Origin: an uncultured bacterium
GTDB taxonomy: Bacteria; UBA8481
DNA: 64,000 nucleotides
Reading direction: 5' to 3'
Assembly (NCBI GenBank): GCA_964499705.1
Contig: CAZCME010000001.1
Span: 261,243 to 325,242 of the forward strand
The notes beneath the pieces were generated by a model. The model was not told where the DNA came from and searched no databases. It saw only the letters and a program-made list of their open reading frames with translations. A program made the translations under genes and the position numbers. Positions 5,685 through 37,799 of this stretch are shown here, piece after piece (positions within the stretch are counted from its first letter, which is position 1; each line of letters begins with the position of its first letter).

Positions 5685-6914
5685 ATGACCGTTAAGAAAT
5701 TCTCGCTCCGTTGCATCGCCTGCGGCGGCGCGGCTCCCGCCGAGCCCCGAACCTATGTCTGCCCGTCGTGCGGGGGCAACTGCGAAGTCGTCATGCCCGA
5801 CCCTGGTTGGACTCGCGCGGACCTCGGGAAGGACCAGGGAGGGTGCCGGCGAGGCGGGATCGCGCGCTATGTCTCGATGCTGCCGCTCCAATCCGCCGAT
5901 TCGCTTCCCCCTCTCCAGGTCGGCCCGACGCCGTTCATACCTTCGCCGAAGCTGGCTCAGGAACTCGGCATAGGCAGGCTTTTTATCAAGGATGACGGTC
6001 GCCTTCCCTCGGGTTCCTTCAAGGATCGCGCCTCGGCCGTCGCCCTGGCGCGGGCGAAGGAGATCGGAGCGATGGAAATCTGCGGCGCCTCGACCGGGAA
6101 CGCCGCGGCGGCGACCGCCTGCCTGGGCGCTTCCATGGGAATCTATCCCAGCATTTTCGTCCCGAAGACCGCGCCCCGCGCCAAGATCGCGCAGCTGGTG
6201 ACTTTCGGAGCGCGCGTCTTTCTCGTCGACGGCAATTATGACGCCGCATGCGATCTCGCTCTTGAGGCGACCCATGCCTTCGGCTGGTACAACCGCAATA
6301 CAGGGTTCAATCCGTACACGCGGGAAGGGAAGAAGACCGTCAGCTACGAGATCCTGGAGGACATGTCATGGTCCGTACCCGACTGGGTCATCGTCTCCGT
6401 CGGCGACGGCAACATCATCTCGGGCGTCTGGAAAGGTTTCAGGGAGATGCGCGAATGGGGATTCGTCGATCGCGCGCCGAAGCTGATCGCCGCGCAATCG
6501 GAGAATTCCCGCTCCGTGTCGGATGCGATTCTGGGCGACGGTGTCATCCGCCCGGTGCGGGCGACCACCATCGCCGATTCCATCTCCGTCGATCTTCCCC
6601 GCGACGGCCTTGCCGCCGTCAAGGCGGTGCGCGAAAGCGCCGGCCGCCCCGTCGTCGTTTCCGACCGCGAAATTCTCGATGCGCAGAAATATCTCGCCCG
6701 CAACGCGGGAGTCTTCACCGAGCCCGCCGGCGCCTGCGCTGTCGCCGCGCTCTGCAAGGCCGCGAGCGAGGGGATTATCGGCGCGGGCGAAACGGTCGTG
6801 GTCATTACGACGGGCAACGGTTTGAAGGATGTTGATTCCGTACTCCGCGGTCTGCCGGAGCTGCCGCTCGTGAAGCCGGATATCGAATCGCTGAAAGCGG
6901 CATTGAAGCGATGA
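5685..6914 (+). CDS. thrC: Threonine synthase-like PLP enzyme (fold type II)
   Basis: N-terminal CxxC..CxxC, PSGSFKDR (PLP Lys), ASTGNA, EGKKT, SVGDGN, EPAGA, TGNGLKD. Confidence 0.8.
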   Translation: MTVKKFSLRCIACGGAAPAEPRTYVCPSCGGNCEVVMPDPGWTRADLGKDQGGCRRGGIARYVSMLPLQSADSLPPLQVGPTPFIPSPKLAQELGIGRLFIKDDGRLPSGSFKDRASAVALARAKEIGAMEICGASTGNAAAATACLGASMGIYPSIFVPKTAPRAKIAQLVTFGARVFLVDGNYDAACDLALEATHAFGWYNRNTGFNPYTREGKKTVSYEILEDMSWSVPDWVIVSVGDGNIISGVWKGFREMREWGFVDRAPKLIAAQSENSRSVSDAILGDGVIRPVRATTIADSISVDLPRDGLAAVKAVRESAGRPVVVSDREILDAQKYLARNAGVFTEPAGACAVAALCKAASEGIIGAGETVVVITTGNGLKDVDSVLRGLPELPLVKPDIESLKAALKR

Positions 6915-6976
6915 GGAACGATGTTTTTCCTCCATCCTGATTCCTTCTCGCGGAAACCCGTCCTCCTCCCCCCATC

Positions 6977-7834
6977 ATGAACGACGCCGAGCTCCTCGCG
7001 GAAGTGAACCGCCTTCTTTCCCTCGGCCAGCGCGTGGTCATGGCCACCGTCGTCCGCACGCAGGGCTCGACACCCCGCAAGGCCGGTGCCAAGATGATCG
7101 TCCGGGAAGACGGTTCCTGCGCGGGCACGATCTGCGGAGGATGTGTCGAGGCGGAGGTGTACGCGAAAGCGAAGGAATTATTCCGGAAGCCGCGACCGAT
7201 CGTCATGCCGTTCTCCCTGAACGACGATGCCGCCGCGGAATACGGGCTCCGCTGCGGCGGCGTCATGGAGGTTTACGTGGAGAGGATTCTGCCGAAGTTT
7301 CAGCTCTGGATCTGCGGCGCGGGGCACATCGGCCAGGCCCTGGCTTCGATCGTCTCGAAGCTGAACTTCGACGTGCATGTCATCGATGACCATCCGGGAT
7401 TCGCCAACGAGGATCATTTTCCGTCGTGCGGAATTCACGTCGCGGAATTCGATCGCGCGGCGACGCTGGTGCCGCAGGGAAGCCATGTCTGCGTCGTCAT
7501 CGCGACGCGCGGGCACAAGCAGGATGCGGATGTCTTCCATGCGCTCGTGAATCACAACCTCGGCTATTTCGGGCTCGTCGCGTCGTGGAAACGCCTCGTG
7601 GATTTCTATAAGCCGCTCCTCTCCGCCGGAATACCCGTGGATCGTCTCCGGAAGATCGCGGCTCCCGTCGGACTCGACATCGGATCCGAATCCCCCGAGG
7701 AGATTGCCGTCGCGATCGCGGCGGAGATCCTGGCCGCGATGAAGGGCGGAAAAGGCGAATCCCTGGCGAAACAATTCTGGGATTCACCCGCGGCGAAAAA
7801 GCTGCCCGAGCTCGCGGCCGGCCTGCAGGAGTGA
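6977..7834 (+). CDS. XdhC/CoxI family molybdenum hydroxylase accessory protein
   Basis: GSTPRKAGAKM, GTICGGCVEAEV, CGG, GAGHIG, TRGHKQD, APVGLDIGSESPEEIAVAIAAEI. Confidence 0.92.
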   Translation: MNDAELLAEVNRLLSLGQRVVMATVVRTQGSTPRKAGAKMIVREDGSCAGTICGGCVEAEVYAKAKELFRKPRPIVMPFSLNDDAAAEYGLRCGGVMEVYVERILPKFQLWICGAGHIGQALASIVSKLNFDVHVIDDHPGFANEDHFPSCGIHVAEFDRAATLVPQGSHVCVVIATRGHKQDADVFHALVNHNLGYFGLVASWKRLVDFYKPLLSAGIPVDRLRKIAAPVGLDIGSESPEEIAVAIAAEILAAMKGGKGESLAKQFWDSPAAKKLPELAAGLQE

Positions 7835-8109
7835 TGGGCGAAATCCGGAAACGCATCATCGTAAAGGGCATCGTCCAGGGCGTGGGCTTTAGATTCTTCG
7901 CGCGCCGCCAAGCGGAACGGCTCGGGATCCGGGGTTTCGTCGCGAACCAGAGCGACGGGTCGGTTCTTGTGGAGGCGGAGGGTTCCGCCGCGCAGGTTCG
8001 CGACTTTATCGGGCGTCTCAAGGAAGGGCCGTCCGCCGGGCTCGTGGAAGACATTCAAACCGAAGCCCTGACCGTGCGGGGCGAAACATCGTTCTCCATT
8101 CAGGCATGA
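7834..8109 (+). CDS. acyP: Acylphosphatase
   Basis: VKGIVQGVGFRFF, GFVANQSDGSV, GP; start overlaps the XdhC stop. Confidence 0.93.
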   Translation: MGEIRKRIIVKGIVQGVGFRFFARRQAERLGIRGFVANQSDGSVLVEAEGSAAQVRDFIGRLKEGPSAGLVEDIQTEALTVRGETSFSIQA

Positions 8110-8258
8110 ACTCTTCGCTCGTCAATCGCCCCGCACCTTGGTTTTCACTCAAAATCGATCCTGCCCATCCTGTTACTATTTCTTGATGGGGAATTTCTGT
8201 CCTTCATACTTCATACTTCATCCTTCCCGCTCTTTCCCCTATACTGCCACGTAGACTG

Positions 8259-11407: not shown

Positions 11408-12310
11408 CTATGCGGCGCGGTAGACCTGTTCCTTCTGTCCCGAGGGGAGGCACGACCCCCGCAGGATCAATTCTTCCGGGAGCGTGATATTTTCGAGCGC
11501 ATCCTTTTCGCCCTTCAAGGCTTTCAGGATCATCTGCACTCCGAGCGCGCCCATCTGGTCGAACGGCTGACGGACGGACCCGAGAGCGGGAGCGGTTCGG
11601 CGCGCGCTGTCGGAATCGTCGAAGCCGATGATGGCCATCTGATCCGGGACAACGATTCCCTGGCTACGCAGCGTTCGGATTCCGCCGAAGGCCTGGATGT
11701 CGCTGGAGAATATGATGGCGTCGAGATTCGGCACGCGTTCGAGGAGCTGCTTCGTCTTCAGGGCGGCGTTCTGCATGTCATAGTTCCCCTCGTCCTCCGC
11801 TTCCAGCGTCAGACCGCGCTCGGCCAGTACCGATTTGATCTCATTGTGGCGCGTCGACCCGGCCCAACCGGCGTCGAGACAGGGTCCGATGAAGCCGATC
11901 TTTTTCCGGCCGAGATCGAGCATGGCCTGAGCCGCAAGCCGCGCGCCCATCTTGTGGTCCAGGAATATGGTGCCTTTTCCCCGCACGGGCAGCGGCCGCT
12001 CGATGAAGACCGTGGGCTTGCCTTTCTTCGCGAGAGCATCAACGAGCGACTGGTCGAAATCCATGAAGACCGCCAGCAATCCGATGATGGAGGGCTCGTT
12101 CAGAACTTCGTCCAGGAATTCCTGTTTCTTTTTTCCCGCGTCGGGGCTCTGAACGTCCAGGCGCAGCCGGTATTCGTGATAGTCGCATTCCAGGAGGCCC
12201 CGACTGACGCCCTGCTCGATTTCGTGGTCGACATAGGAAGCACGATAGGCCCAGAGGATCGCGATGTGCTGCGCGCCCTCGACGAGTTTCATGGAGATCA
12301 CATCGCTCAT
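11408..12310 (-). CDS. LacI-family ligand-binding domain protein without a recognisable HTH
   Basis: DHKMGARLAAQAMLDLGRKKIGFIG, DAIIFSSDIQAFG, VPDQMAIIGFDD, PALGSVRQP, ELILRGS. Confidence 0.8.
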   Translation of the reverse strand: MSDVISMKLVEGAQHIAILWAYRASYVDHEIEQGVSRGLLECDYHEYRLRLDVQSPDAGKKKQEFLDEVLNEPSIIGLLAVFMDFDQSLVDALAKKGKPTVFIERPLPVRGKGTIFLDHKMGARLAAQAMLDLGRKKIGFIGPCLDAGWAGSTRHNEIKSVLAERGLTLEAEDEGNYDMQNAALKTKQLLERVPNLDAIIFSSDIQAFGGIRTLRSQGIVVPDQMAIIGFDDSDSARRTAPALGSVRQPFDQMGALGVQMILKALKGEKDALENITLPEELILRGSCLPSGQKEQVYRAA

Positions 12311-12449
12311 TATCCCGTCCGTCCAATCCGGCGAATTCTCCCGTTCAACCCGGGGCCACGAGAGTGAGGAAGATTCTACAGAAGCCCGGGATGAAATCAA
12401 CGCAAGAAAAATACTTCATACTTCATGCCACTTACTTCATACTTCTCAA

Positions 12450-13223
12450 GTGTCCTGGTACGTTTATATAGAAGATGAGTCGCATGGTCCCTACGACAAG
12501 GAGGAACTGAAGAACTTCCTGAAGCCGACGGATTTCGTCGCCAAGGTCGGAACGGCGGCCTGGATGGAAGCCACGAAAGATCCGGAGCTGGCCGCGCTCT
12601 TTATCGCTCCGCCTGTTCCAGCGGACGTCGACCCGATGTGGTATGTCACGCCGAAGGGGAAGCCGCAGCGGGGGAGATTCACGCCCGGGGCGCTGGCCAA
12701 CATGCTGAAAAAGAATACCTTGCAGCCGGACGATCTGGTCCGCCATGAATCCTGGGATCGGGGCGTGCTGCTCCGGGAGTCGAGCGCGTACAGGAAAATA
12801 ACGTCGGGCGGAGTCAAGCCTGAGGAGTTGACGGAGGCGGATTGGCTGGCTTCCGAGCCCGCGAAGCAACAGCCTGCCCCGTCTGTCGCCACCCCCGCCG
12901 CTTCCGGGGCCGCCCGGAGCTTGCGCAACAGGTTCAGGATGGATTTCGAGTGGACTCCGGTCACAATGGGGATGGTCGCCCTGGTCTTCCTGCTCCCGCT
13001 GCTCGGCTTTCTCGGTTACGAATACGGATATCGCGGCTCCGATATGGAATTTCGCGCGCAATACGGGGAAGCTCAGGATGAATGCGCCAAGGACGACATA
13101 TCCAGGACGATCTGCGCGGAGAGCCCCGGCCGGTGCGGATGCTCGGAAAAAGGTTCGTGCGCCATGAGGGAATGCATCAAGTTCGCGTCCTACAACCGGG
13201 TGCGAAAATCCCCTGGCAAATAG
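12450..13223 (+). CDS. Tandem GYF_2 (DUF4339)-like / single TM / 6-Cys domain protein, paralog 1
   Basis: WYVY..HGPYDKEELK and WYVTPKG..RGRFT..AL repeats, TM helix, C-x9-C-x6-CxC-x5-C-x4-C. GTG start at 12450 chosen by alignment to the paralogs. Confidence 0.75.
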   Translation: MSWYVYIEDESHGPYDKEELKNFLKPTDFVAKVGTAAWMEATKDPELAALFIAPPVPADVDPMWYVTPKGKPQRGRFTPGALANMLKKNTLQPDDLVRHESWDRGVLLRESSAYRKITSGGVKPEELTEADWLASEPAKQQPAPSVATPAASGAARSLRNRFRMDFEWTPVTMGMVALVFLLPLLGFLGYEYGYRGSDMEFRAQYGEAQDECAKDDISRTICAESPGRCGCSEKGSCAMRECIKFASYNRVRKSPGK

Positions 13224-13278
13224 ACCGTCCTGATTAACAATGGTTTTCTCTCCATGAAAATTGGCATATAAATCGCGT

Positions 13279-14040
13279 ATGCGCTGGTATCTCTTCAGGA
13301 ACGAAACGGTTCACGGCCCCTACGAAAAGGAGGATCTGAAGTCGTTCCTGACCGCGACGGATCAGGTGGCCAGGGAGGGTTCCGACGCATGGGGCGAAGC
13401 GCAGAAAGATGGCGCGCTGGAAGATATCTTCACGACGTTCATTCAGCCGGATCTGGAATGGTATGTCACTTTGAAAGGAAAACCGACACGCGGACCGTTC
13501 GCCCAGTCGGCGCTTTTAAATCTCCTTAAGAAAAATGAAATTGGCCCGAATGACTCCATTCGCCACACCTCGTGGCCGAAGGCCGTGCCACTTCGGGAGA
13601 CGCGCATCCACAAATACATGTCCGATGCGGCGGTCCGGCTGGAGGATGTTCCTCCCGATGAGTGGAAGGAGGCTCCGAAGGTCGCCGGTTCAACAGCGCC
13701 CGTCAGGCCATCCGGATCGGCGAGTTCAGCCGCCGGAAAGAAGAACAAGTTCAAGCTGGATATCGAATGGAACGCGATGTCCATCTCCATCGTGATCGCG
13801 GCCCTTCTTTTGCCCCTGGTCGGATACATGAGCTACGATTCCGCCTACAAGGGCTCCGATCTCGAACTGAGGATCCAATACGGCAAGCCCGCGGGCGACT
13901 GCCGGACGGACGAGACCTCCAAGAATATCTGCGGCGATCGTCCCCTGAAATGCGCGTGCAAGACAAAAGGGGATTGCGGCATGCCCGAATGCGCCAGGCT
14001 GGGCCAGATTCTGGACGCGAAAGCGGGGCGCCATCCGTGA
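13279..14040 (+). CDS. Tandem GYF_2-like / TM / 6-Cys domain protein, paralog 2
   Basis: MRWYLFRNETVHGPYEKEDLK, WYVTLKGKPTRGPFAQSAL, TM, same Cys spacing. Confidence 0.75.
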   Translation: MRWYLFRNETVHGPYEKEDLKSFLTATDQVAREGSDAWGEAQKDGALEDIFTTFIQPDLEWYVTLKGKPTRGPFAQSALLNLLKKNEIGPNDSIRHTSWPKAVPLRETRIHKYMSDAAVRLEDVPPDEWKEAPKVAGSTAPVRPSGSASSAAGKKNKFKLDIEWNAMSISIVIAALLLPLVGYMSYDSAYKGSDLELRIQYGKPAGDCRTDETSKNICGDRPLKCACKTKGDCGMPECARLGQILDAKAGRHP

Positions 14041-14063
14041 TTCGCGGCAGGGACGCGTAGGCG

Positions 14064-14798
14064 GTGCGCTGGTATCTCTACCGGAACGATACCGTTCACG
14101 GCCCTTATGAGAAGGAGGAACTGAAGACGTTCCTCGCGCCCGCGGACAAGATCGCACGGGAGAACACGGACGCGTGGACGGATGCGTCCGGCGATGAGCT
14201 TCTCGAGGATATTTTCACGACGTTTCTGCAGCCCGTCCTGGAATGGCACGTCACGCCGAAAGGCAGGCCGCAGCGCGGGCCCTTCGCCCAGTCCGCTCTG
14301 CTGAACCTTCTCAAGAAAAAGGAAATCGCGCCGGATGATCTCCTGAAACACGAGTCCTGGCCGAAGGCCGTTCCGCTGAGAGATACTCGGATCTATCGGT
14401 ATCTGAAGGATGATCTGGTCAAATTGGAGGACGTGCCGCCGGACGAGTGGAAAGAAGCGCCCCGGCAGAAAAATACGACGGCGCCCGTGCCGCCGTCAGG
14501 TCGGAAGAGGCGCATCAAGCTGGACTTTGAACTGACGACGGGCCGGAAGATCATGATCGGCCTCGTCGTCATGACTCCGTTGATCGGCTTTATCGGTTAT
14601 GACAATTTCTATCGCGGTTCCGACATCGCGTTCCGGATCGAGCATGGAACGGCGACCGGCAATTGCACGACGGACGAGATATCAAAAACCATCTGTCCCA
14701 AAAATCCCGGCAAATGCGGATGCAATCCCAAGGGCGATTGCTCCATGCCGGCCTGCGAGATGTACCGGAAAATGCAGCAGCAGGGGCAGGCGAAGTAG
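14064..14798 (+). CDS. Tandem GYF_2-like / TM / 6-Cys domain protein, paralog 3
   Basis: MRWYLYRNDTVHGPYEKEELK, WHVTPKGRPQRGPFAQSAL, TM, same Cys spacing. Confidence 0.75.
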   Translation: MRWYLYRNDTVHGPYEKEELKTFLAPADKIARENTDAWTDASGDELLEDIFTTFLQPVLEWHVTPKGRPQRGPFAQSALLNLLKKKEIAPDDLLKHESWPKAVPLRDTRIYRYLKDDLVKLEDVPPDEWKEAPRQKNTTAPVPPSGRKRRIKLDFELTTGRKIMIGLVVMTPLIGFIGYDNFYRGSDIAFRIEHGTATGNCTTDEISKTICPKNPGKCGCNPKGDCSMPACEMYRKMQQQGQAK

Positions 14799-14805
14799 GG
14801 AAGAC

Positions 14806-15447
14806 TCAGTACGAGTCGTAGGTTCTTCCCTCGGTGGACATCATCGTGTTGTTGACGCGGACTCTTCCTTCCACATTCACGTAATGCCATCCCCGCCAGT
14901 TGCCGTTGGGATTGACGCCGGCGATGTTGCACTGCCAGACACCGTTGGACCAGTTGGTCTGGCCTCCCCAGAAGCTGACCGTGCCGTCATCGGAGACTTC
15001 GCTCATCGGGATGTGGTCGATGTAATTAATGAGAAAGACGCCGAACGCGCCCTTCTCGATCGTGGTGCCGTTCGAATCGTCACCCGACCATTGCTCGCCG
15101 TTGTTGGGGATGCCGACGCCGGGGCCCTCCCGGAGCGACCACGGGAATCCGCCGGTCGAATTCGCGCCGGCCTGGTTATAGGAATAGTTGACGCCTTTCA
15201 TCGTGAAGAAGACATTGATGGCGGTGCGGAGAGACGCGAGATGGGACCAGGTCCGGCCTTCGCGGGCTTTGCGGAGCGCATGCTTGATGTTGGAGAGGCT
15301 GACGGCGGCGAGAACGCCGATGATGGCGCAGACCACGAGGAGCTCGATCAGGGTGAAACCGTCGCGTTTCGCGGAAGAAAGGCGGGACACGCGGGGCCGT
15401 TGCCGACGGCCGGAGCGTCCGCGCGGGATTTCACGGAGCTGCTGCAT
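14806..15447 (-). CDS. Type IV pilin-like protein, paralog A
   Basis: Basic leader, KRDG|FTLIELLVV prepilin site with Glu5; KAREGRT..HL..LRT; C-terminal GWHY..G.VR.NN..STEG..Y..Y. Confidence 0.88.
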   Translation of the reverse strand: MQQLREIPRGRSGRRQRPRVSRLSSAKRDGFTLIELLVVCAIIGVLAAVSLSNIKHALRKAREGRTWSHLASLRTAINVFFTMKGVNYSYNQAGANSTGGFPWSLREGPGVGIPNNGEQWSGDDSNGTTIEKGAFGVFLINYIDHIPMSEVSDDGTVSFWGGQTNWSNGVWQCNIAGVNPNGNWRGWHYVNVEGRVRVNNTMMSTEGRTYDSY

Positions 15448-15455
15448 GGGACTCT

Positions 15456-16133
15456 TCAGTATTTATAATACTCTTGTCCGTCGGTGGACAAGGAGTTGTT
15501 GTTGATGCGGACATTGCCGGTGGTGTTTTTGTAATACCACCCTCTCCAGTTGCCGTTGATGTTCGGCACCGCGGTTGTCACGAAGTTGTCGCACCATCCG
15601 GCCGTGCCGCCCTTGCCCTCGTTGTAATAGCCGTCACCGCAGAGCGGATCGCCGTTCTTTCCTATAAGTGCGGAGGGCATCTGAGCGAGAAATCTGTTCA
15701 CACCGGCACCATAGCCCCAATCACCGACTTCGCCGCCGCCTGTTTCAATCCTCCATCCATCCTGACCGTCCTCCATCAGGTACCCTTCGCCGCCTACGGG
15801 GGGCGAAGGTCCCCAGCTTCCCTCCTTCAGGTTCCACGGAAATCCGTTCGTCGAATTCGGTGTGACCATATAGTTTCCATTATATTTCGGCTTGTATTGT
15901 CCCCCGCCTCCGGCGCCGGGCCCTCCCATGGCGGAGAACGCCTGGACGGCCGTTCGCAGGGTATTGAGATGCACGTAGGTTTTTCCTTCGCGGGCCTTCC
16001 AGATCGCGCGCTTCAGGTTCGCGAACATGAGGACCCCGAGAATGCCGAGGATGACGCAGATGACGAGGAGCTCCAGGAGCGTAAACCCCTTTTCGTTTCT
16101 ACGGGCTTGTGAGAAGCGCGCGCTGAGATTCAT
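15456..16133 (-). CDS. Type IV pilin-like protein, paralog B
   Basis: NEKG|FTLLELLVI; same conserved N- and C-terminal blocks as paralogs A and C. Confidence 0.88.
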   Translation of the reverse strand: MNLSARFSQARRNEKGFTLLELLVICVILGILGVLMFANLKRAIWKAREGKTYVHLNTLRTAVQAFSAMGGPGAGGGGQYKPKYNGNYMVTPNSTNGFPWNLKEGSWGPSPPVGGEGYLMEDGQDGWRIETGGGEVGDWGYGAGVNRFLAQMPSALIGKNGDPLCGDGYYNEGKGGTAGWCDNFVTTAVPNINGNWRGWYYKNTTGNVRINNNSLSTDGQEYYKY

Positions 16134-16192
16134 ACGATCGATTCGGCCTTTCGGATCCGGAGTTGAGGCGCCGGCGGAACAAAAATCAAGCC

Positions 16193-16204
16193 GCAAGCGA
16201 TTGC
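16193..16204. promoter_or_regulatory. Palindromic GCAA-N4-TTGC candidate operator upstream of pilin B
   Basis: GCAAGCGATTGC, identical to 16972-16983. Confidence 0.5.
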
Positions 16205-16211
16205 ACGGCCT

Positions 16212-16242
16212 ATTATAGGCATACCAGGAGAGTGACTGTCAA
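16212..16242 (-). promoter_or_regulatory. Candidate sigma70 promoter of pilin B (TTGACA-N19-TATAAT)
   Basis: Plus strand has ATTATA at 16212-16217 and TGTCAA at 16237-16242. Confidence 0.5.
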
Positions 16243-16267
16243 CCCCGGAAATGAGAAAAAGTGAGAA

Positions 16268-16924
16268 TCAGTAAAGGTCGTATTGCTTGCCGTCGGTGGA
16301 GACGCACGTGTTGTTGATCCGTACTTTTCCGTCCACGTTGCGGTAGTGAAAACCGCGGTCGTTACTGTTCGCGATGCCATCCCCCGGGTTGGATTGCGCG
16401 TCGGTCGTGGGCCGGTTCGTCTCCCAGACTCCCCCCAGGAAATAAAAGCCGTCGTCGAAGGCGATGTGGAATTTCCCGTCCTTGGCGACTTCCGCCGAGG
16501 GAAAGTCCGTGAGGTAAGTGGTCAGATACGCGCTGAATTGCCCCTTTTCCACGACGCACGGCCAGTTCGGATCACGTTCATCGCCATGCCAGTCGGATCC
16601 GCCGGCGGGAGGAGCGACCACCGCGCCTGTGGGATCCTGCATCAGAGCGTAGGGATAGCCGTTGGTGTGATGAGCGGCGATGGAGTCGATCTCGTAGTTG
16701 TATTCCATGCCCTTCTGCGCATGGAAAAGCTCCACCACCGTGCGCACCGTCTGCAGGTGCTCATAGGTTCTGCCTTCACGGGCTTTCCAGAGAGCCCTCT
16801 TCAGGTTGGCAAACATGACAACCGCCAGAATTCCCAGGATCGCCACGATGACGAGCAGCTCGATCAGCGTAAAACCTCGACCGTTCGTTGATGATAGGGA
16901 TATCCGTTTCCTGAGTGTGCTCAC
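16268..16924 (-). CDS. Type IV pilin-like protein, paralog C
   Basis: NGRG|FTLIELLVI; GTG start at 16924 preceded by AAGGAG; same conserved blocks. Confidence 0.88.
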   Translation of the reverse strand: MSTLRKRISLSSTNGRGFTLIELLVIVAILGILAVVMFANLKRALWKAREGRTYEHLQTVRTVVELFHAQKGMEYNYEIDSIAAHHTNGYPYALMQDPTGAVVAPPAGGSDWHGDERDPNWPCVVEKGQFSAYLTTYLTDFPSAEVAKDGKFHIAFDDGFYFLGGVWETNRPTTDAQSNPGDGIANSNDRGFHYRNVDGKVRINNTCVSTDGKQYDLY

Positions 16925-16971
16925 GCCCGCTCCTTCCGGAGCCATCCGCTGATTCCCCACTACCTGCTTAT

Positions 16972-16983
16972 GCAAGCGATTGC
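16972..16983. promoter_or_regulatory. Palindromic GCAA-N4-TTGC candidate operator upstream of pilin C
   Basis: GCAAGCGATTGC; a minus-strand TTGACA-N17-TAACAT lies just upstream (17036-17008). Confidence 0.5.
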
Positions 16984-20009: not shown

Positions 20010-20633
20010 ATGGCGATGCGCACGATGGCTTCTGAGTTCCGCGGGAAAGGTCGCGGCTTCACGCTTGTGGAACTCATGGCGGTCGTCATCATCATCATCA
20101 TCCTGCTGGCCCTGTCGTTGATGGTTCCCCAGTATTCCGATTTTCGCGACCGGATCACGATCAAGGGTTTCTCCACATCGATCCTGACCAAGTTGCGCGA
20201 GGCGAAGAACCTCAGCAAGGCGCTCGGCAAGAACGTCAACGTGGTGGTGGACCTCGACAATGAAAAAGTATGGATCTCCGTCGATAAAGTTCAGTATGGC
20301 AGCGCTCTCTCCGCGCCGTCGTCCAAGTGCGACATCAAGGGTTTCCAGGAATGGAATGACGCCGGGGTGACGAAGACGACGGGAAGCTGCACTATCACGT
20401 ACTATAATCGGGGCACGTCCATTACAGAGAACATGGATGGGCCGGATGGTATTTTCCACATCGGTTCAACGTCCGATGTGTACGCCTCCGGCGGTAATAA
20501 TGCTCTGAACATGAAAACGATCGCCGTGCTGAACGCTCCGGGCCGGGCCGAGTGGTTCAACTCCGGGTGCGTGGGAACGGCGAATTGGGCGACTTCGTGG
20601 GGGTGGCCCAAGTGCAAGGAGCTGACAAATTGA
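20010..20633 (+). CDS. Minor pilin, FimT/GspH-like
   Basis: KGRG|FTLVELMAV; first of four overlapping prepilin-like genes. Confidence 0.8.
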   Translation: MAMRTMASEFRGKGRGFTLVELMAVVIIIIILLALSLMVPQYSDFRDRITIKGFSTSILTKLREAKNLSKALGKNVNVVVDLDNEKVWISVDKVQYGSALSAPSSKCDIKGFQEWNDAGVTKTTGSCTITYYNRGTSITENMDGPDGIFHIGSTSDVYASGGNNALNMKTIAVLNAPGRAEWFNSGCVGTANWATSWGWPKCKELTN

Positions 20634-21061
20634 CGATCCGGCCGGCTGCTTATCGTCGTCGCCGCACGAGCGCGGGTATGACCTTCATGGAAGTCATGGT
20701 CGCGGCCACGATCATGTTCACGGGCGCGGTTGTCATGATCACGGTCCTCCCGAAGCTGATCGAGGCGGGATACTCCCGTTCCTCCCGCGACATGTCCTAC
20801 ATCTTCGGGATGTCGAAGATGGACGAGATCATGGCGTCTCCCTATTCCACTATTACATCGGGTTCTGGAAGTTTCACCGAGCTCATGCCCGATGTGCCCG
20901 AGGCCTACAATTTTGAATATCAATACACCGCGACCGAGGTCACGACGGATAATCTACCCACGGATCTCCTGAAGCGCGTCACGCTTGTCATCACATGGGG
21001 CGATGACAGCGATAAATCGGACACGTATGTTTTCTACATGGCGGACAAGGGAGATGACTAG
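20630..21061 (+). CDS. Minor pilin, PilV/GspI-like
   Basis: TTG start after AAGGAG; TSAG|MTFMEVMVA; C-terminal LKRVTLVITW. Confidence 0.78.
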   Translation: MTIRPAAYRRRRTSAGMTFMEVMVAATIMFTGAVVMITVLPKLIEAGYSRSSRDMSYIFGMSKMDEIMASPYSTITSGSGSFTELMPDVPEAYNFEYQYTATEVTTDNLPTDLLKRVTLVITWGDDSDKSDTYVFYMADKGDD

Positions 21062-21062
21062 A

Positions 21063-21803
21063 ATGACAGGGATATCTCGCAGGGCGCTCCGCCGGCATCG
21101 AGGCATCTCCGGCCTCTCCCTTCTCGAAATGCTCGTGGCCACCCTCATCTTCTCGATCCTTATGCTCGGCTTCACATCACTCTTCCGCTTTTCGATCACG
21201 GCGTGGTTCAACGCCGTCGGCCGGTTCGGCAACATCCAGAACCTGGCCGGTGCCTTCGACATCATCGCCAGCGACCTGAGAAGCGCCCTGCCGCCCTACG
21301 ATACCTGCAGCGATATATATCTCCTGGGGCAGGATGAGGGTTCGACCGTGGATCCTGACCTGACGAATTCGATCCAGGACGAACTTGTGTTCCATTGCCC
21401 CACGTATACCAGTAAGGAAGGGCAGTTCAACAGCCCGAACGGCCAGCAGTGGAGCGCCGCTGCCCGCATCGGAAATGAATTGGCAAAGCGCGGATATTGG
21501 ATGCGCCGCGACAGTACTAATGACACAATTCTCATGCAGGGCCGAGACGTCGCGGACACGAGCGATTACTGTCCCGAGATCACCTATGGATTTTCGATCT
21601 TTGACGAGTTCGCCTATTCCGTATCCAAGTTCAACGTGGAATATTACGACGGCGCGACCTGGTTGGACGATTGGAGCACCAACACGCAGGGCAAATTGCC
21701 GAAACTCGTGCGCGTCACGCTTCAATCCACCAAGAGCGGCGCCGCGATGACGATGGCGTATGTGGTGCATCCGAGAGCCCAGGGGACGTATATCACGCAA
21801 TGA
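21063..21803 (+). CDS. Minor pilin, PilW/GspJ-like
   Basis: ISG|LSLLEMLVA, IASDLRSA, C-terminal FNVEYYDG..W.DDW..KLPKLVRVTL. Confidence 0.82.
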   Translation: MTGISRRALRRHRGISGLSLLEMLVATLIFSILMLGFTSLFRFSITAWFNAVGRFGNIQNLAGAFDIIASDLRSALPPYDTCSDIYLLGQDEGSTVDPDLTNSIQDELVFHCPTYTSKEGQFNSPNGQQWSAAARIGNELAKRGYWMRRDSTNDTILMQGRDVADTSDYCPEITYGFSIFDEFAYSVSKFNVEYYDGATWLDDWSTNTQGKLPKLVRVTLQSTKSGAAMTMAYVVHPRAQGTYITQ

Positions 21804-24451
21804 TGAATAACAGGAAGCGGAGCGCCCGGCGATCCGTGCAGGAAGACGGCGTGGCGCTCATCACCGCCATCTGGATGACCGTCATCGGCATCATGCTCGT
21901 GACCACCCTCGCGACGCTCATCACCGGCAACATCGGCCTTGCCGCCAGCATCGGCGCGGACGCGAAAGCCCGGATCGCCGCGCACTCCGGAGTAGAAAAG
22001 GCGATCGCGTATCTGATCGCCGACCGCCCCAGCGGACTACTGGATACGCCGGGAGTCATCATCACGGAAGTGCAGAACAGGCCACAGGATTACATTCGGG
22101 ATCTGCTGCCGCTTCATAGCACCTCTATTGGAGCGGGAGGCAATACATTCGATACCTCGTTTGAGTTTTGCGGAAACGACACATTATGGATCAAGGGCGG
22201 TGGCACCCTGTTGGATGCGAGTCTGGAAACCTATGTCGCGTCAACCGGCGGGATAGATGCGGTTACAGGAGCCAAGGTCTTTAATTTCAAGGCGATGACA
22301 GCTACGTTTGCCACGGATGGATCGGGATCCAACAGGTGGCTTCGTTCCTGCACTGTGGCCGTCAGCCCGAACGATACGGTTAATTTCGGTTGCTGGTACT
22401 ATACTGCGGGAATCAGCGATCATCAGATGCGGCTTATTCTTCAGTGGAGAGACGCTCAGGGGACGGTGATCGGTTCAGTAACAAAAGATTTTGATCTCGA
22501 CACTCACGGCGCATGGCGGAAGCTGGAGCAGCGAGTTTCGCTGGCTCCTGCCAACACTGTGGGAGCCACGCTGTTTATCACGCCCCGCTATGTCACCGCC
22601 GGTTTTTCCGCCGTGGATATCATGATCGATGATGCCTATATCTCCTACGGAGACACGAATCCCGCCACGGTCCGCAGGTATGAGTATATCGAGATCCAGA
22701 ATTGCGACACGGTCGATCACACCTTCGGCGTGGATACCAACCAATGTCCCGATACCGCGTATTGGATCGCGGTCCGGAATGGTCCGGGCAGCATCGGCAG
22801 TCCGAATACGGGGGGCAATGACACGCTCTTCATCTATCCGATGAGCTATGACAATTGCAAGAACCCGGGGAACTCTGACGGCACCGACGATCCCTGGGGC
22901 ACGGATTCGAACTTCTTCGCCAGCGATTCCACGTTGAAAGTCGGAGCTGTCGGAGTGATCGTCGTCGACGATGCCGACACGGTCTCCATTGCGGCGCTCA
23001 TGGGGAAGAAACCTTCATCCATCCAATGGTTCGGTCTCCGTCGAAAGAACGGCGACAGCTTTGTTCATACCTTGGGCGAGGCTTACACGACCTATTCGGG
23101 GGGTATTACATTCGACAGTTACAATAACAGCATGCTGAACGATACCGGCTGCACCGTGATCATCGGTTTCGGCGGAAAACCGAAAACAACCGCGCCTTAT
23201 TGGTTTGGTGTGCCGCTACCGGATTCGGCGCGTCAGCAGAATACGGGCTTCACATCCTGGCCGAGCTGGCAGAAGTCCGGTTACAAGAACAACGATCTTG
23301 ATGATACGATCGATAATTCCGCCACGCCGCCGCTCTGGTTCGGCGACCTGAACGAGTCGACCTGGAATCGGGCGGCTCCCACTCCGGGTGAAGGCATCAT
23401 ATCGACATCCCGGCAGGGGGTCGATGGCGCGACCGACACGTGGTATAAATTCGCGTTCGATTCCTTCGTGAAGCATGACACGTCGACATATGATATCTAT
23501 TATCGCGTGCGCATCTTCGACGAAGGCGCCAAGGTGAACATCAATTACCTGCATCACAGGCCGACGTCGGCATCCTGGGAATCGCACGTCTTCATTAATC
23601 TCCTCTGTGAGACTTCGGGGACGGCTTTCAAGACGACCTCTTCGTACTGGGATAATTCCGCCGCATCGCAGAAAGCGGCCGCGAGGAATGCGGACAGCAT
23701 GGCGCACAATCTCATGCGCGGGGGCATATTCCCCAACGGGTCCACGAACGATTCGTTGATCACGCCCTTGTCCGCATACATGATCCATTCGGACTCGGGA
23801 GGGACATCCGCCACGAGCCGGGGGCGCAGGTTCGATTCCACATACATACCCTTCGTCTCGATTTACGGCTACAACGAGGCCCTGGTCTTTCCCGTCAACA
23901 TCAACATGGCGGATCTGCCCGTCGTCCGCGCCGCGCTCATCTGGGCGTTGATCGGCAATTTCAACCTGACCGATTCGGTGGGCTCGACCTTCGCGATCTC
24001 CAACTGGAACACCGCGCGTGACAGCGCGCGCGTCCTCGCGGACAGCGTGCTCCGTTATCTCACCGGCCTCGATACGACCCGGTCCAACGACACGGTCCTT
24101 TATCGCGAATCGGACATCCTGAAGGTAGCAGCCACCGCCGGAGACCGAGCTCAGCTCCAGTGGGCCATCAACAACAACCGGATCACCCGCGCCTTCAGCT
24201 GCGCTTCGACGAACTACTTCACGATCCACTGCACCGGATTCGCCTTCCAGAAAGGCGCCAATCCGTACACGGACACCCCCGTGGCCCAGAACCGGATCAT
24301 CGCGGTGGTGCGGAGGTACACGGACGCCGACAAGGCGGATATCCTGTACTGGCGCGAGACCATGGAGGTCGCCGACGCGAGTATCTTCGCGCATACGACC
24401 CCGATCGGTTCCTACAGGACACCCTCCTACAGGTGGGATCCGACGCAGTGA
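21800..24451 (+). CDS. Large PilX/GspK-like minor pilin (883 aa) with inserted domains
   Basis: EDG|VALITAIW without Glu5, A..AAHSGVEKAIAYL, RIFDEGAKVNIN, VNINMADLPVV, STNYFTIHCTG; ATGA overlap with the upstream gene. Confidence 0.78.
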   Translation: MMNNRKRSARRSVQEDGVALITAIWMTVIGIMLVTTLATLITGNIGLAASIGADAKARIAAHSGVEKAIAYLIADRPSGLLDTPGVIITEVQNRPQDYIRDLLPLHSTSIGAGGNTFDTSFEFCGNDTLWIKGGGTLLDASLETYVASTGGIDAVTGAKVFNFKAMTATFATDGSGSNRWLRSCTVAVSPNDTVNFGCWYYTAGISDHQMRLILQWRDAQGTVIGSVTKDFDLDTHGAWRKLEQRVSLAPANTVGATLFITPRYVTAGFSAVDIMIDDAYISYGDTNPATVRRYEYIEIQNCDTVDHTFGVDTNQCPDTAYWIAVRNGPGSIGSPNTGGNDTLFIYPMSYDNCKNPGNSDGTDDPWGTDSNFFASDSTLKVGAVGVIVVDDADTVSIAALMGKKPSSIQWFGLRRKNGDSFVHTLGEAYTTYSGGITFDSYNNSMLNDTGCTVIIGFGGKPKTTAPYWFGVPLPDSARQQNTGFTSWPSWQKSGYKNNDLDDTIDNSATPPLWFGDLNESTWNRAAPTPGEGIISTSRQGVDGATDTWYKFAFDSFVKHDTSTYDIYYRVRIFDEGAKVNINYLHHRPTSASWESHVFINLLCETSGTAFKTTSSYWDNSAASQKAAARNADSMAHNLMRGGIFPNGSTNDSLITPLSAYMIHSDSGGTSATSRGRRFDSTYIPFVSIYGYNEALVFPVNINMADLPVVRAALIWALIGNFNLTDSVGSTFAISNWNTARDSARVLADSVLRYLTGLDTTRSNDTVLYRESDILKVAATAGDRAQLQWAINNNRITRAFSCASTNYFTIHCTGFAFQKGANPYTDTPVAQNRIIAVVRRYTDADKADILYWRETMEVADASIFAHTTPIGSYRTPSYRWDPTQ

Positions 24452-24533
24452 GGGATCCCCTGGCGGGGGAGAATACGAAGCATCGAGTTCGTCGCCCGGA
24501 CCGGGAAAAGCCGCGTTTTCATAACATGCTAAT

Positions 24534-24545
24534 GCAACCGCTTGC
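24534..24545. promoter_or_regulatory. GCAA-N4-TTGC candidate operator upstream of the PorV-like gene
   Basis: GCAACCGCTTGC, one mismatch to the pilin copies in gene orientation. Confidence 0.45.
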
Positions 24546-24590
24546 GCAAGGTCAAAAAAGTGTTTTCATTCTTCCGACGCGTGTGCTAAG

Positions 24591-26477
24591 ATGAGGTTCA
24601 TGCCGAGGCTTCGCCACGCGTTCTCCTGCCTGTTCCTCCTGCTCTCCGCCTCGGAAAGCGCCTTCGCCGCCACCGCTTCCGGCGCCGGCACGACGGGCGC
24701 GACATTTCTCGAGATCGGAATCGGAGCCCGTTCCGCGGCGATGGGGGAGGCCAACACGTCGTGGGCGGACGATGTCTACGGCATGTACTTCAACCCGGCC
24801 GGCATCGCGACCGTCCGGAGGCAGGAAGTCGGCTTCGCGCATAACACGCTTTTTTTGGATCTCGACTACAATTATCTCGGCTACGTCCATCCGCTCGGCG
24901 ATGCCTCCTCCATCGGCGTCAGCGGCACCTATGTCGATCTCGGCGACGTCGAGCGGCGCGAGATCATCGCCGGTGGCGGCCCTTCCGGCGCCCTCGGCAA
25001 CGCCTCCGCCTATGATCTCTCCTTCTCGCTCACCTACGCACGAACGCTTTCGGAAGTGATCGATCTCGGCGGGACCCTTAAAGTCATACACGAGACGCTG
25101 GACAATTACAGCGCCAGCGCCGTTGCGGTGGATCTCGGAGCCAAGTGGCGGCCTCCTGTCGAGGGCCTGACAGTCGGCCTGTCGGTCCTCAATCTCGGCT
25201 CGAACCTGAAGTTCGTCGCCTCGGGCGACGAGCTTCCGATCAGCATCCGCTTCGGAGCCGGATACCGCCCGCCGAGCCGCCGTTGGGGTCTGCAGGGCGA
25301 CCTCGTCTATGTCAAGAACCAGGATGTGGAAGGGAAGATCGGCGGCGAATGGTGGGTCTGGGAAGACCATATCGCGATCCGTGCCGGAGCTAATTCCGCC
25401 AACGACGCGGGGAGCGGATTCACGGTGGGCGCGGGATTCAAGTGGAACGATATTCTCCTGGATTATGCCTACGTGCCCTTCGGCGATCTCGGCGACCAGA
25501 ATCTCATCTCGCTCGCCTACCAGTTCGGAGCCCCCCGCGGAGTTCCGCCGGAACGCACCATGACGCGCTATGAACCCTCTCCGACTCAACCCGCATCCGT
25601 CTCCGCGCCGCCGCCGTCCACACCCTACGCGACGGGCGAGGCGGCCGGTTCCACTGTCACGATGTACACAACGGCGCCGGCCGCTCAACCCTGGGGCGTT
25701 TCCGTCACGCCTTTCGCCTACCGTTCCGGCCCTCCGGAGTACGATTGGATGAGCCGCGCGACGGCGGACGTGCTTGCCAAAGACTGGAAGAAGCGCGGGC
25801 TCCTGAACACCGCCATGAGCTCGGCGCGATTCCAGGTCGAGGGTGAATTCTGGATCGTCGGGCGCAACCTTATTCTCTCCGCCAGATTGTCGGGCGACGG
25901 ATTCCGGTACGCGGCCGATGCGAACGGAGACGCTGACAAGCCCTTCGAAGTCTGGACCGCTCTTCTTCAGAAATTGAACGATGCTCTGCGCGAGCGCGGC
26001 GTCCTCTCCGCACCCGCGCCGGTTCCCGCGCCCGCGCCGCAGTCCTCCGAATGGTCGCCCGCTCCATCCTGGGCCTCCCGACCACCCGCTCCCGCGGCTC
26101 CGTCCCAACCTGCCTACACGGCGTCTACACCGCTCCCGCCGAGCCCCGCTTCGACCGCGCCCCGGAAGGGCGTGGCGGTCGCGACGATCATGGAGCACGG
26201 CAATGCGGTTTCCTCGGCTCGATCCTCGATGCTCACGACCGCCGTCCGCGACGCGCTCGTCGGTCTCGGATTCTCCACGGACGCCTCCACGGCCCAGTAC
26301 AGATTCGACGCGACCTATGCCGATCTCGATGACGGCTCGACGGTCGTCTACGGCAAGATCGTGGACCGGGCCACCGGCATTCCGATCGCCAACGTCGAAG
26401 TCTACGGATCCGCATCGAATCCGGCGTCCTTCGCATCCCGCATCGCCGACGCCGTGATGTTCAAACTTCCCAAATAA
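24591..26477 (+). CDS. PorV/PorQ-like (UPF0164) outer-membrane beta-barrel with C-terminal extensions
   Basis: Signal peptide; GTTGATFLEIGIGARSAAMGEA, YFNPAGI, LDYAYVPFGDLG..ISLAYQF; then Pro-rich linkers and two small alpha/beta domains. Confidence 0.8.
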   Translation: MRFMPRLRHAFSCLFLLLSASESAFAATASGAGTTGATFLEIGIGARSAAMGEANTSWADDVYGMYFNPAGIATVRRQEVGFAHNTLFLDLDYNYLGYVHPLGDASSIGVSGTYVDLGDVERREIIAGGGPSGALGNASAYDLSFSLTYARTLSEVIDLGGTLKVIHETLDNYSASAVAVDLGAKWRPPVEGLTVGLSVLNLGSNLKFVASGDELPISIRFGAGYRPPSRRWGLQGDLVYVKNQDVEGKIGGEWWVWEDHIAIRAGANSANDAGSGFTVGAGFKWNDILLDYAYVPFGDLGDQNLISLAYQFGAPRGVPPERTMTRYEPSPTQPASVSAPPPSTPYATGEAAGSTVTMYTTAPAAQPWGVSVTPFAYRSGPPEYDWMSRATADVLAKDWKKRGLLNTAMSSARFQVEGEFWIVGRNLILSARLSGDGFRYAADANGDADKPFEVWTALLQKLNDALRERGVLSAPAPVPAPAPQSSEWSPAPSWASRPPAPAAPSQPAYTASTPLPPSPASTAPRKGVAVATIMEHGNAVSSARSSMLTTAVRDALVGLGFSTDASTAQYRFDATYADLDDGSTVVYGKIVDRATGIPIANVEVYGSASNPASFASRIADAVMFKLPK

Positions 26478-26730
26478 ATCCGCATGCGGTTGCACTGTCG
26501 ATATTGCAGATAAAAGCGCCCGCTGATACCATGGACGGGTTGCAGAGCCACATCTGAAAAAATACAGAAATCCGGGGTCTCTAACGGACAGGAGCGCATA
26601 CTTTGTCGATGCGCTCGTCAAGCGGCCCGGATACATTGCCGAAAACAAAATGAGGCACTTGCGCCGCGGGCGATCGAGCCGCGGTCGCCTGGGCCGCGGG
26701 CCTTCGTGCCGGATGGAGCAGACACGCTAA

Positions 26731-28437: not shown

Positions 28438-28440
28438 CGG

Positions 28441-31343: not shown

Positions 31344-31368
31344 GAGTCAGATCCTTGAGGTCCCGCTG

Positions 31369-37326: not shown

Positions 37327-37775
37327 CAGTAATCCTCCACGAGCCCGATGAATTCGCCTTCATCGGCGCGGACGATGTCGTCCTGCGAGAGCAGGAGCAG
37401 GATATTGGGGACGGAATTTCCATCAGGTCCTTTGCTGTACAGATCATAATCGGTGTTGATGGGAATCAGAATGCCGTTGGTACGGAAGAGAAGCGAAAGA
37501 ACGAAGCCATGCGAATTGTAGACGTAAGGATTTCCCCAGGGGTCCCTGGGCATGGGGCCGGCCTTCAGGGAGTCCCAAGTGTCCGGAATTTTCCCGTTCA
37601 CGGATTTATGGATGTCGATCTGTTTCTGGAGCGTTTTCAAGTCGGCGATGGCTCGCGACTGCCGCGTCGTGTCGAGCGCATCGAAAAGCTTCGGCAGAGC
37701 GATACCGGCGAGGATGCTCAGGATGAGAAGGACCATGAGGAGCTCAAGCAGCGTGAAACCCGACCGGGAATGCAT
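37326..37775 (-). CDS. GspG-like pseudopilin
   Basis: RSG|FTLLELLMV..IALP, DPWGNPYVY, YDLYSKGPDG, DDI; stop overlaps the kinase start (TGATG). Confidence 0.88.
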   Translation of the reverse strand: MHSRSGFTLLELLMVLLILSILAGIALPKLFDALDTTRQSRAIADLKTLQKQIDIHKSVNGKIPDTWDSLKAGPMPRDPWGNPYVYNSHGFVLSLLFRTNGILIPINTDYDLYSKGPDGNSVPNILLLLSQDDIVRADEGEFIGLVEDY

Positions 37776-37799
37776 CGCGTCAGCGCCGTCGTATCGACA

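Follow-up and report, generated by a model that had tools for sequence, protein, structure and literature searches.

The convergent GYF and pilin arrays

In a 64,000-nucleotide stretch of DNA from an uncultured bacterium of a Hydrogenedentota-labelled lineage (hereafter the window, meaning the whole stretch analysed), three tandem genes for membrane proteins with GYF domains (A1-A3) run towards three tandem genes for type IV pilin paralogs (P1-P3) on the opposite strand. Each of A1-A3 combines GYF domains, a transmembrane (TM) helix and a C-terminal part with six cysteines (Cys6), and is referred to here as a GYF-TM-Cys6 protein. The two arrays and the spacer between them are as follows, in window positions.

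12450-13223, + strand: A1, GYF-TM-Cys6 protein, 257 aa, GTG start
13279-14040, + strand: A2, GYF-TM-Cys6 protein, 253 aa, ATG start; alternative open reading frame (ORF) start TTG at 13261
14064-14798, + strand: A3, GYF-TM-Cys6 protein, 244 aa
14799-14805, no strand: spacer GGAAGAC between the convergent stop codons, 7 bp, without a terminator
14806-15447, - strand: P1, type IV pilin paralog, 213 aa, 8 bp 3' of P2
15456-16196, - strand: P2, type IV pilin paralog, likelier start ATG at 16133 with a 16-aa leader
16268-16975, - strand: P3, type IV pilin paralog, likelier start GTG at 16924 or ATG at 16945

An earlier reading made from the sequence only (the sequence-only reading) had reported that the three forward-strand GYF genes end 7 bp from the three reverse-strand pilin genes with no terminator between them. 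This was confirmed by direct reading, which places the A3 stop codon TAG at 14796-14798 and the P1 stop codon at 14806-14808, and by a terminator scan, in which no terminator-like site was found in the gap and the 6-kb region held 7 sites compared to 5.8 +/- 2.6 in shuffled sequences. The predicted RNA fold of the junction was no better than that of shuffles (z 0.03). The stretch occurs in groundwater metagenome runs, and the junction is bridged with 0 differences by contigs from three public DNA runs, which belong to two studies (X1, 13676-14841; X2, 13755-15220; X3, 14556-15020), indicating that the arrangement is not an assembly artefact. Two apparent joints in run contigs were disregarded, as the match on one side comprised just 20 letters and lay in conserved pilin helices.

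A2 and A3 share 39% and 43% identity with A1, respectively, and 57% with each other. A Pfam scan found the GYF_2 domain (PF14237) twice in each of the three proteins with E values of 1e-11 to 1e-12 and scores of 42.2-47.8 bits, well above the gathering cut-off of 25.8. At E <= 0.1, the scan found no family besides GYF_2 and no zinc-ribbon match, and neither a HisKA/HATPase_c kinase core nor any other enzymatic domain was present. All three proteins have the same layout, in which two N-terminal GYF_2 domains are followed by a proline-rich linker, one hydrophobic helix and a short C-terminal part with six cysteines. Across the GYF-TM family, the membrane helix contains a conserved P-x-x-G-[FY] motif, and the C-terminal part, a module of ~50 residues, has the invariant spacing C-x9-C-x6-C-x-C-x5-C-x4-C. 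In an AlphaFold2 model of A1 built from a 13-row alignment (mean pLDDT 80.5), both GYF domains were predicted with pLDDT >90, the linker (residues 139-164) was disordered, and a TM helix (170-194) was followed by a small helical Cys domain (198-252; pLDDT about 80). The top Foldseek match of the A1 GYF domains was the GYF structure of GltJ, 7z3c (E 9.6e-3, prob 1.00), which was also matched at the profile level (E 2e-4), and residues 1-52 and 59-134 aligned with GYF domains, including eukaryotic ones, at VIA Z 5.8-7.1. For residues 165-257, VIA gave solely non-specific helical rows (Z <= 2.9), and the Cys6 module had no usable Atlas feature match.

The topology of the family was examined in 13 members. 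The N-side flank of the TM helix has a net positive charge (0 to +4) and the C-side flank a charge of -1 to +1, and 12 of the members have an acidic GYF region. The cytoplasmic part is free of cysteine in 11 of the 13, and the C-terminal part contains 6-9 cysteines. In addition, the window's own genome (G000) encodes, among housekeeping genes, a triple-Cys6 lipoprotein-like protein with a signal peptide (G000:C3:213840-214505; L053 6841-7506), in which Pro/Ala-rich linkers join three Cys6 copies; this protein had 5 homologs in a large protein search and matched no Pfam family. The charge bias, the cysteine distribution and the signal peptide of the triple-Cys6 protein together support a cytoplasmic GYF region and a disulfide-bonded periplasmic Cys6 module, suggesting that A1-A3 are bitopic inner-membrane proteins of N-in, C-out topology. 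The proline-rich linker is only suggestive of a proline-rich sequence that GYF domains could bind. A sub-branch of the family (L020 6618-7526; P0015 and P0018) keeps the GYF tandem and the helix and has a different, Cys-less periplasmic domain of ~110 residues.

The other two pilins share 40% and 46% identity with P1. All three contain the prepilin motif G/FTL[IL]ELL and match PF07963 (N_methyl) at 28.6-32.6 bits against a cut-off of 21.2; TIGR02532 was above its cut-off for P1 and P3, and the best N-terminal match in NCBIfam was the myxobacterial PilA model, far under its cut-off. The positions of start codons and promoters give leaders of about 16-30 residues, which are basic; the longer ORF-derived leaders used in counting cysteines and charges are upper bounds. 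The pilin model shows a helix (37-91; pLDDT 88-91) carrying a poorly predicted head (mean pLDDT 63), for which Foldseek returned nothing at E <= 0.001, the best match having an E value of 1.1 and the weak pilin matches resting on the helix. No conserved Cys pair of a C-terminal disulfide D-region was found in P1-P3, the Cys positions differing among them and three relatives being Cys-free. The C-terminus of the subfamily is conserved as RG[WF]xYxN..G.VRINN..ST[DE]G..Y..Y.

Both arrays had been described as pairing a conserved scaffold with variable exposed parts. This description is borne out for the pilins, in which the alpha1 helix (51-75% identity) and the C-terminus (53-78%) are more conserved than the middle of the head (25-41%). 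It applies only in part to the GYF proteins, in which identities are 44-73% for the GYF domains and 43-55% for the Cys domain, and the most variable parts are the C-terminal tail and the cytoplasmic linker (13-34%; 67% between A2 and A3).

Linkage of the two families across loci and genomes

The lineage is represented in the collection by only five species-level genomes, G000 and four relatives (G001-G004). In G000, the GYF-TM family has seven members distributed over five loci, and a motif search gave 19 pilin-like genes. At four of the five GYF loci, a pilin-like gene is present within 2.5 kb, at distances of 8, 82, 95 and 2348 bp, and the fifth locus is 200 kb from any such gene. As the chance of a single locus falling within 2.5 kb is 0.018, the binomial probability of at least four among five is about 6e-7, and none of 200,000 random placements reached four loci.

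The linkage takes several forms. At L022, on contig C2, a second convergent pair consists of one GYF gene (6551-7363, + strand) and one pilin gene (7445-8224, - strand). L019 (G000, contig C23) is a divergent block of a GYF gene, an ATP-binding cassette (ABC) ATPase gene, one or more membrane protein genes and a pilin gene, and L020 (G000, contig C1) is a co-directional operon of an ABC ATPase, an ABC-2 permease, a pilin, a GYF protein and two sugar-type solute-binding proteins; the GYF gene of this operon belongs to the Cys6-less sub-branch. The divergent GYF-ABC-pilin block is also found in G004 (L026) and G002 (L030), and thus in at least three of the five genomes, and G003 has a related block (L032) in which the intervening gene matched no family. 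At L024 of G004, one GYF gene lies upstream of two nearly identical pilin genes on the same strand. Both subfamilies are present in G000, G002 and G004, and neither occurs in full form in G001 (86% complete) or G003. The linkage is therefore kept across genera and in three orientations (convergent, co-directional and divergent), pointing to a relation at the protein level and not to convergent transcription. Convergent read-through as a conserved coupling was dropped, since the orientation differs among loci.

A simple explanation would be coincidence, in which two unrelated, lineage-specific families underwent tandem expansions that happen to abut. Both families do duplicate in tandem, with two GYF genes at L029, three pilin genes at L031 and two at L024, and only five related genomes exist. 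Against this stand the pilin proximity of four of the five G000 loci, with its binomial and random-placement results, and the GYF-ABC-pilin synteny conserved across genera, and we regard coincidence as very improbable.

Phylogenetic analysis provided a further link. The C2 gene clusters with A1 in the GYF tree (90/84), in a group that also includes the metagenomic protein P0005, and A2 and A3 group with P0004 (91/87); in the pilin tree, the C2 pilin groups with P3 (97/94). The divergence of the C2 pair from its array counterparts is similar in the two families (55% identity for GYF and 56% for pilin). Monophyly of P1, P2 and P3 without the C2 pilin was rejected (p-AU 0.011), as was that of A1, A2 and A3 (p-AU 7e-6), a group that metagenomic rows also break; the groups tested were named after the trees had been seen. 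The paired tree positions and the similar divergence fit a joint duplication of A1/P3 and the C2 pair. The outer array genes A1 and P3 thus appear to have counterparts that are paired elsewhere, which fits either the copying of one GYF-pilin pair as a unit or the copying of the whole array followed by loss of the four inner genes. Taken together, the proximity of GYF and pilin genes at four of five loci, the second convergent pair and the paired tree positions support a functional link between the two families beyond chance, as had been proposed from the window.

The sequence-only reading had further suggested that the 3:3 match reflects cognate pairs, allowing that it may be coincidence. In its strict form, this would mean one GYF-TM sensor, chaperone or gate for each pilin, nested as A1-P3, A2-P2 and A3-P1. 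Both trees match the 1:1 pair on C2 with the outer genes A1 and P3, at similar divergence, the close subfamilies in the genome comprise four GYF and four pilin genes, and a grouping of P1 with P2 was not rejected (p-AU 0.087), all of which are in line with strict pairing. However, one GYF gene is accompanied by two pilin genes at L024, and G002 has five pilin genes against two full-length GYF-TM-Cys6 genes, none of them adjacent. Moreover, the best pilin tree places P2 with P3 and the C2 pilin (89/86), A2 and A3 are 57% identical compared to about 40% for P1 and P2, and the variability of the transmembrane and Cys regions does not exceed what would be expected of paralogs. A complex prediction for A1 with prepilin P3 (full-length, with their own alignments and without controls) gave no support for a complex (score 0.01, mark 0.32), a result that counts neither for nor against pairing. 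Matched 3:3 pairing thus did not hold up across the lineage, given the 1:2 locus L024, the G002 pilins without a GYF gene within 9 kb, and the pilin at L027 and several GYF genes that stand alone. We consider strict cognate pairing unlikely; one-to-one specificity among the copies is possible but not required.

A probable ligand-binding partner and a possible mechanism

Upstream of the GYF array lies a gene that was not part of the two-family picture.

11408-12400, - strand: LacI-type ligand-binding protein without a helix-turn-helix (HTH) domain, likely start ATG at 12310, divergent from the GYF array

The encoded protein matches Peripla_BP_3 with an E value of 4.5e-27; at E <= 0.1 the Pfam scan found only Peripla_BP_1/3/4 and no LacI HTH, and LacI-family models of NCBIfam align to the protein only from about model position 76-171 onward. 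In two metagenomic proteins, P0019 and P0022, a ligand-binding domain is fused ahead of the GYF-GYF-helix-Cys arrangement. P0022 begins directly with this domain, and its N-terminal half shares 41% identity over 260 aa with the window protein. As separate genes, the two partners adjoin each other at five loci in four genomes. They form a divergent pair in the window, at L025 of G004 and at L028 of G002, the L028 copy being the best match of the window's ligand-binding protein (50% identity), ahead of the paralogs in the window's own genome. At L021, the pilin-less fifth locus of G000, and at L033 of G003, the stop codon of the ligand-binding gene overlaps the start codon of the GYF gene. Because fusion and repeated adjacency are a classical sign of joint action, we rate this link above the pilin link, and the ligand-binding protein and the GYF protein probably act together. 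The sequence-only reading had overlooked this third partner as well as the ABC transporter of the sister loci.

Pilin/GYF loci are repeatedly flanked by carbohydrate genes (L019 4552-6471; L023 6679-8712; L031 4386-6755; L020 7523-11988), which encode glycoamylase+CBM9 or F5/8-type-C proteins, two sugar-type solute-binding proteins and a GH3+PA14 enzyme. The presence of such genes at several loci fits, but does not establish, a carbohydrate signal.

The window also contains genes for a type IV pilus machine close to the two arrays.

20010-24451, + strand: three minor-pilin-like genes and a gene for a 926-aa protein (N_methyl and T2SSJ matches)
26731-32586, + strand: two PilB-like ATPases (MshEN), a PilT-like ATPase and a PilC-like platform protein (Pfam)

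No family was found for the 926-aa protein. The genes for the two PilB-like ATPases (26731-28437 and 28441-30225) are adjacent and encode one MshEN domain each, with the PilT and PilC genes next to them. Upstream of them, a 628-aa protein (24591-26477) has a weak match to PorV, an outer-membrane barrel. The Pfam scan of the window's ORFs gave no Secretin match; PilM/PilN and six secretins are found elsewhere in the genome, which also has one prepilin peptidase gene (Peptidase_A24). A replacement of PilN/PilO by the GYF-TM proteins was therefore dropped, as genes for PilM, PilN and secretins are present elsewhere in the genome.

Based on these data, we propose a lineage-restricted, GltJ-like membrane adaptor that would link a cytoplasmic sugar-type sensor to pilins, a reading for and against which we see about equal chances. 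In this proposal, the cytoplasmic GYF tandem of A1-A3 would receive the ligand state of the HTH-less LacI-type sensor, and the GYF domains and the helix would relay it to the periplasmic Cys6 module, as a GltJ-like "inside-out" switch. The Cys6 module or the helix might then contact membrane-stored pilins, which share the same topology, and this contact could control the stability of the pilins or their entry into the neighbouring pilus machine (20010-32586). The array would have grown by duplication, with at least one GYF-pilin pair (A1/P3 and the C2 pair) copied as a unit. We see similarly balanced odds for the more general claim that GYF proteins and pilins cooperate, in whatever manner, in a system of this kind.

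Several observations weigh against the adaptor reading. In G002, none of the five subfamily pilins has a GYF gene within 9 kb; the contig with three of them begins at the ABC ATPase gene, exactly where the GYF gene sits in other genomes, and on another G002 contig ABC genes face two GYF genes at the contig end. The G004 pilin at L027 has no GYF gene in 13 kb, and the GYF loci L021, L025 and L028 have no pilin gene nearby. Copy numbers are unmatched in the relatives, as in the 1:2 arrangement of L024, and the window has no ABC transporter, so that the architecture of the sister loci differs. The pilin tree places P2 with P3 and the C2 pilin and not with P1, a grouping of P1 with P2 not being rejected, and the pairing of A2/A3 with P1/P2 is not resolved by the tree. 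The counts are few and come from five related, non-independent genomes, too small a basis for a statistical argument, and no proline-rich sequence that the GYF domains might target was identified. The support for contact comes from gene context and trees, and the sugar-type ligand of the LacI-type domain is a prediction. Domains, fold, gene linkage, fusion and trees are observed; the membrane topology, each of the contacts, the course of the signal and the ligand are our inferences.

Alternatively, the GYF-TM protein and the LacI-type protein could form a carbohydrate-responsive signalling pair that makes no contact with pilins, the pilin, ABC, solute-binding protein and glycoamylase genes being co-regulated members of the same island. 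The ligand-binding link is the strongest one, given the fusions and the overlapping stop and start codons; several loci carry glycoamylase+CBM9, GH3 or sugar-binding solute-binding protein genes; and L021, L025 and L028 have a ligand-binding gene and no pilin gene. However, this alternative does not readily account for pilin adjacency at four independent loci of a single genome, which show three orientations and, in three cases, distances of 8-95 bp, or for the apparent copying of one GYF gene together with one pilin gene, and we consider it somewhat unlikely.

A more detailed version of the adaptor reading would amount to a novel type of pilus control, in which the sugar sensor without DNA binding would dock on the GYF tandem or be fused to it, and a particular pilin paralog would be held or released by the helix and the disulfide-knotted Cys6 module. 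In this full form it appears distinctly unlikely; if true, the cell would pick the pilin for its pilus machine by carbohydrate state, and receptor-pilin pairs would duplicate together.

Further genes adjoin members of the two families. GGDEF diguanylate cyclase genes adjoin two GYF loci in relatives, and in the window a response-regulator-GGDEF gene (37326-38693) adjoins a GspG-like pseudopilin gene. A protein combining GYF_2 with an OB-fold is encoded near one GYF locus (loci noted: L025 1699-3360; L029 3425-4534; L033 7594-9024).

The 5' regions of the two arrays contain the following elements.

12412-12445, + strand: heptamer repeats, two copies of TACTTCATACTTC, just 5' of the A1 start codon
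17008-17036, - strand: P3 promoter, sigma-70-like TTGACA-17-TAACAT, upstream of P3
16972-16983 (P3 5' leader) and 16193-16204 (P2 5' leader), - strand: palindromic 12-mer GCAATCGCTTGC, just 3' of the -10 box

Tandem heptamers (ACTTCAT / CCTTCAT, 2-5 units) occur at many sites in G000, where runs very often stop a few bases 5' of an ATG ("...CATACTTCTCCCATG"), and 63 matches to a 13-mer were found genome-wide with <=1 mismatch. The repeat as a locus-specific operator of A1 was dropped in view of these 63 matches, and the element looks like a lineage-wide 5'-leader or promoter-proximal element. On the pilin side, the likely P3 start codon GTG at 16924, the end coordinate in the sequence-only reading, is preceded by a GGAAGGAG box 5 nt away. 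A promoter for P2 was read by eye (TTGACA at 16242-16237, a 19-nt spacer and TATAAT at 16217-16212), P1 is probably co-transcribed with P2, and a matching TTGACA-17-TATACT site lies upstream of the C2 pilin. The palindrome GCAATCGCTTGC has 5 exact copies in the genome, two of them in the pilin array, and the related CAGTCGCTTC occupies the same position before the C2 pilin (L022, about 8185-8197). In the P2 leader, GCAATCGCTTGC forms part of a hairpin that is followed by a T-run. The palindrome could act as an operator or as an RNA element of the leader.

Rarity and comparison with known systems

Both families are rare. When 1.84 billion representative proteins were searched with a GYF profile, 886 matched at E <= 0.001, nearly all of them solely in the GYF domains; full-length matches numbered about a dozen, and 18 matches reached E <= 1e-30. 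A word-indexed search of 5.8 billion proteins returned 7 GYF-TM relatives, four of which are from this genome. The pilin subfamily is equally rare, with 12 full-length matches. Metagenome scans with the GYF alignment and with the pilin alignment found no relative, and a scan of genome contigs with a 7-row GYF alignment found L034 only. Among the metagenomic proteins, P0004 and P0005 are encoded on one 9186-bp contig, P0158 and P0159 on a 3095-bp contig, and P0161 on a 9009-bp contig.

In the literature, we found no report that links GYF domains with pilins, a statement to be read with the gene neighbourhoods in figs. S3/S4 of PMC11135422, which may list related contexts. Searches on DUF4339 and on type IV pili of Hydrogenedentes gave nothing relevant, and no report of a GYF gene in a myxobacterial pilA-pilGHI cluster was found. 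The class of proteins with an N-terminal GYF domain and a membrane module is known, as are type IV pilins; new are the tandem-GYF/Cys6 family, its tie to an HTH-less LacI-type domain, and the repeated linkage of its genes with those of pilins and of an ABC transporter.

If the reading proposed here is right, the GYF-TM family would be a second case after GltJ, tied to type IV pili and not to gliding, with a candidate input in the LacI-type ligand-binding domain without DNA binding, which some relatives carry as a fusion with the GYF protein. A physical link to pilins, if there is one, would reveal how cells choose among several pilin paralogs or store them, a question posed by many multi-pilin bacteria, and would assign a role to the orphan six-cysteine module of the periplasm. 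The scope of these implications is an uncultured lineage with five species-level genomes and about a dozen full-length clusters among the 1.84 billion representative proteins.

To our knowledge, GltJ of Myxococcus xanthus is the only bacterial GYF protein with a known job. As described in PMC11135422, its GYF domain recognises a proline-rich stretch in AglZ and contributes to switching on an envelope-spanning motility machine. According to the same paper, in most bacterial GYF proteins the GYF domain is N-terminal and a membrane receptor module comes after it, and a zinc-ribbon (ZnR) domain is found in about 44% of bacterial GYF proteins (PMC11135422). A1-A3 resemble GltJ, a switch that recruits cytoplasmic partners in an envelope motility apparatus (Agl-Glt gliding), in their cytoplasmic N-terminal GYF domains, single membrane helix and periplasmic part, and GltJ is the best structural and profile match of their GYF domains. 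Different from A1-A3, GltJ has a ZnR domain, a single GYF domain and a long periplasmic region, whereas A1-A3 have two GYF domains, no ZnR match and a tiny Cys6 part. The ZnR domain is a feature of the GltJ subtype and not obligatory for the class of GYF membrane receptors. Moreover, the neighbours of A1-A3 are pilin genes and the HTH-less LacI-type gene, not Agl-Glt, MglA or AglZ, and identity between GltJ and A1-A3 is only about 25% over 59 columns.

With LacI/GalR regulators, the 11408-12400 protein and the N-terminal halves of P0019 and P0022 share the Peripla_BP_3 fold. Different from these regulators, the HTH DNA-binding domain is missing, and the ligand-binding domain is tethered to a membrane protein by fusion or by gene adjacency.

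In Pseudomonas aeruginosa, PilS, a multi-pass inner-membrane histidine kinase with PilR as its partner, is encoded beside the major pilin gene and is thought to monitor the PilA pool in the membrane by helix-helix contact. A1-A3 are likewise predicted inner-membrane proteins encoded beside pilins, but they have one helix and no kinase domain. PilG/H/I of M. xanthus form an ABC transporter that is encoded next to a pilin gene. In the sister loci of the GYF family, an ABC ATPase gene and an ABC-2-type membrane protein gene lie directly upstream of the pilin gene, which resembles the M. xanthus pilA-pilGHI arrangement (PMC6060248), whereas the array in the window, in which the GYF genes converge on the pilin genes, has no ABC genes.

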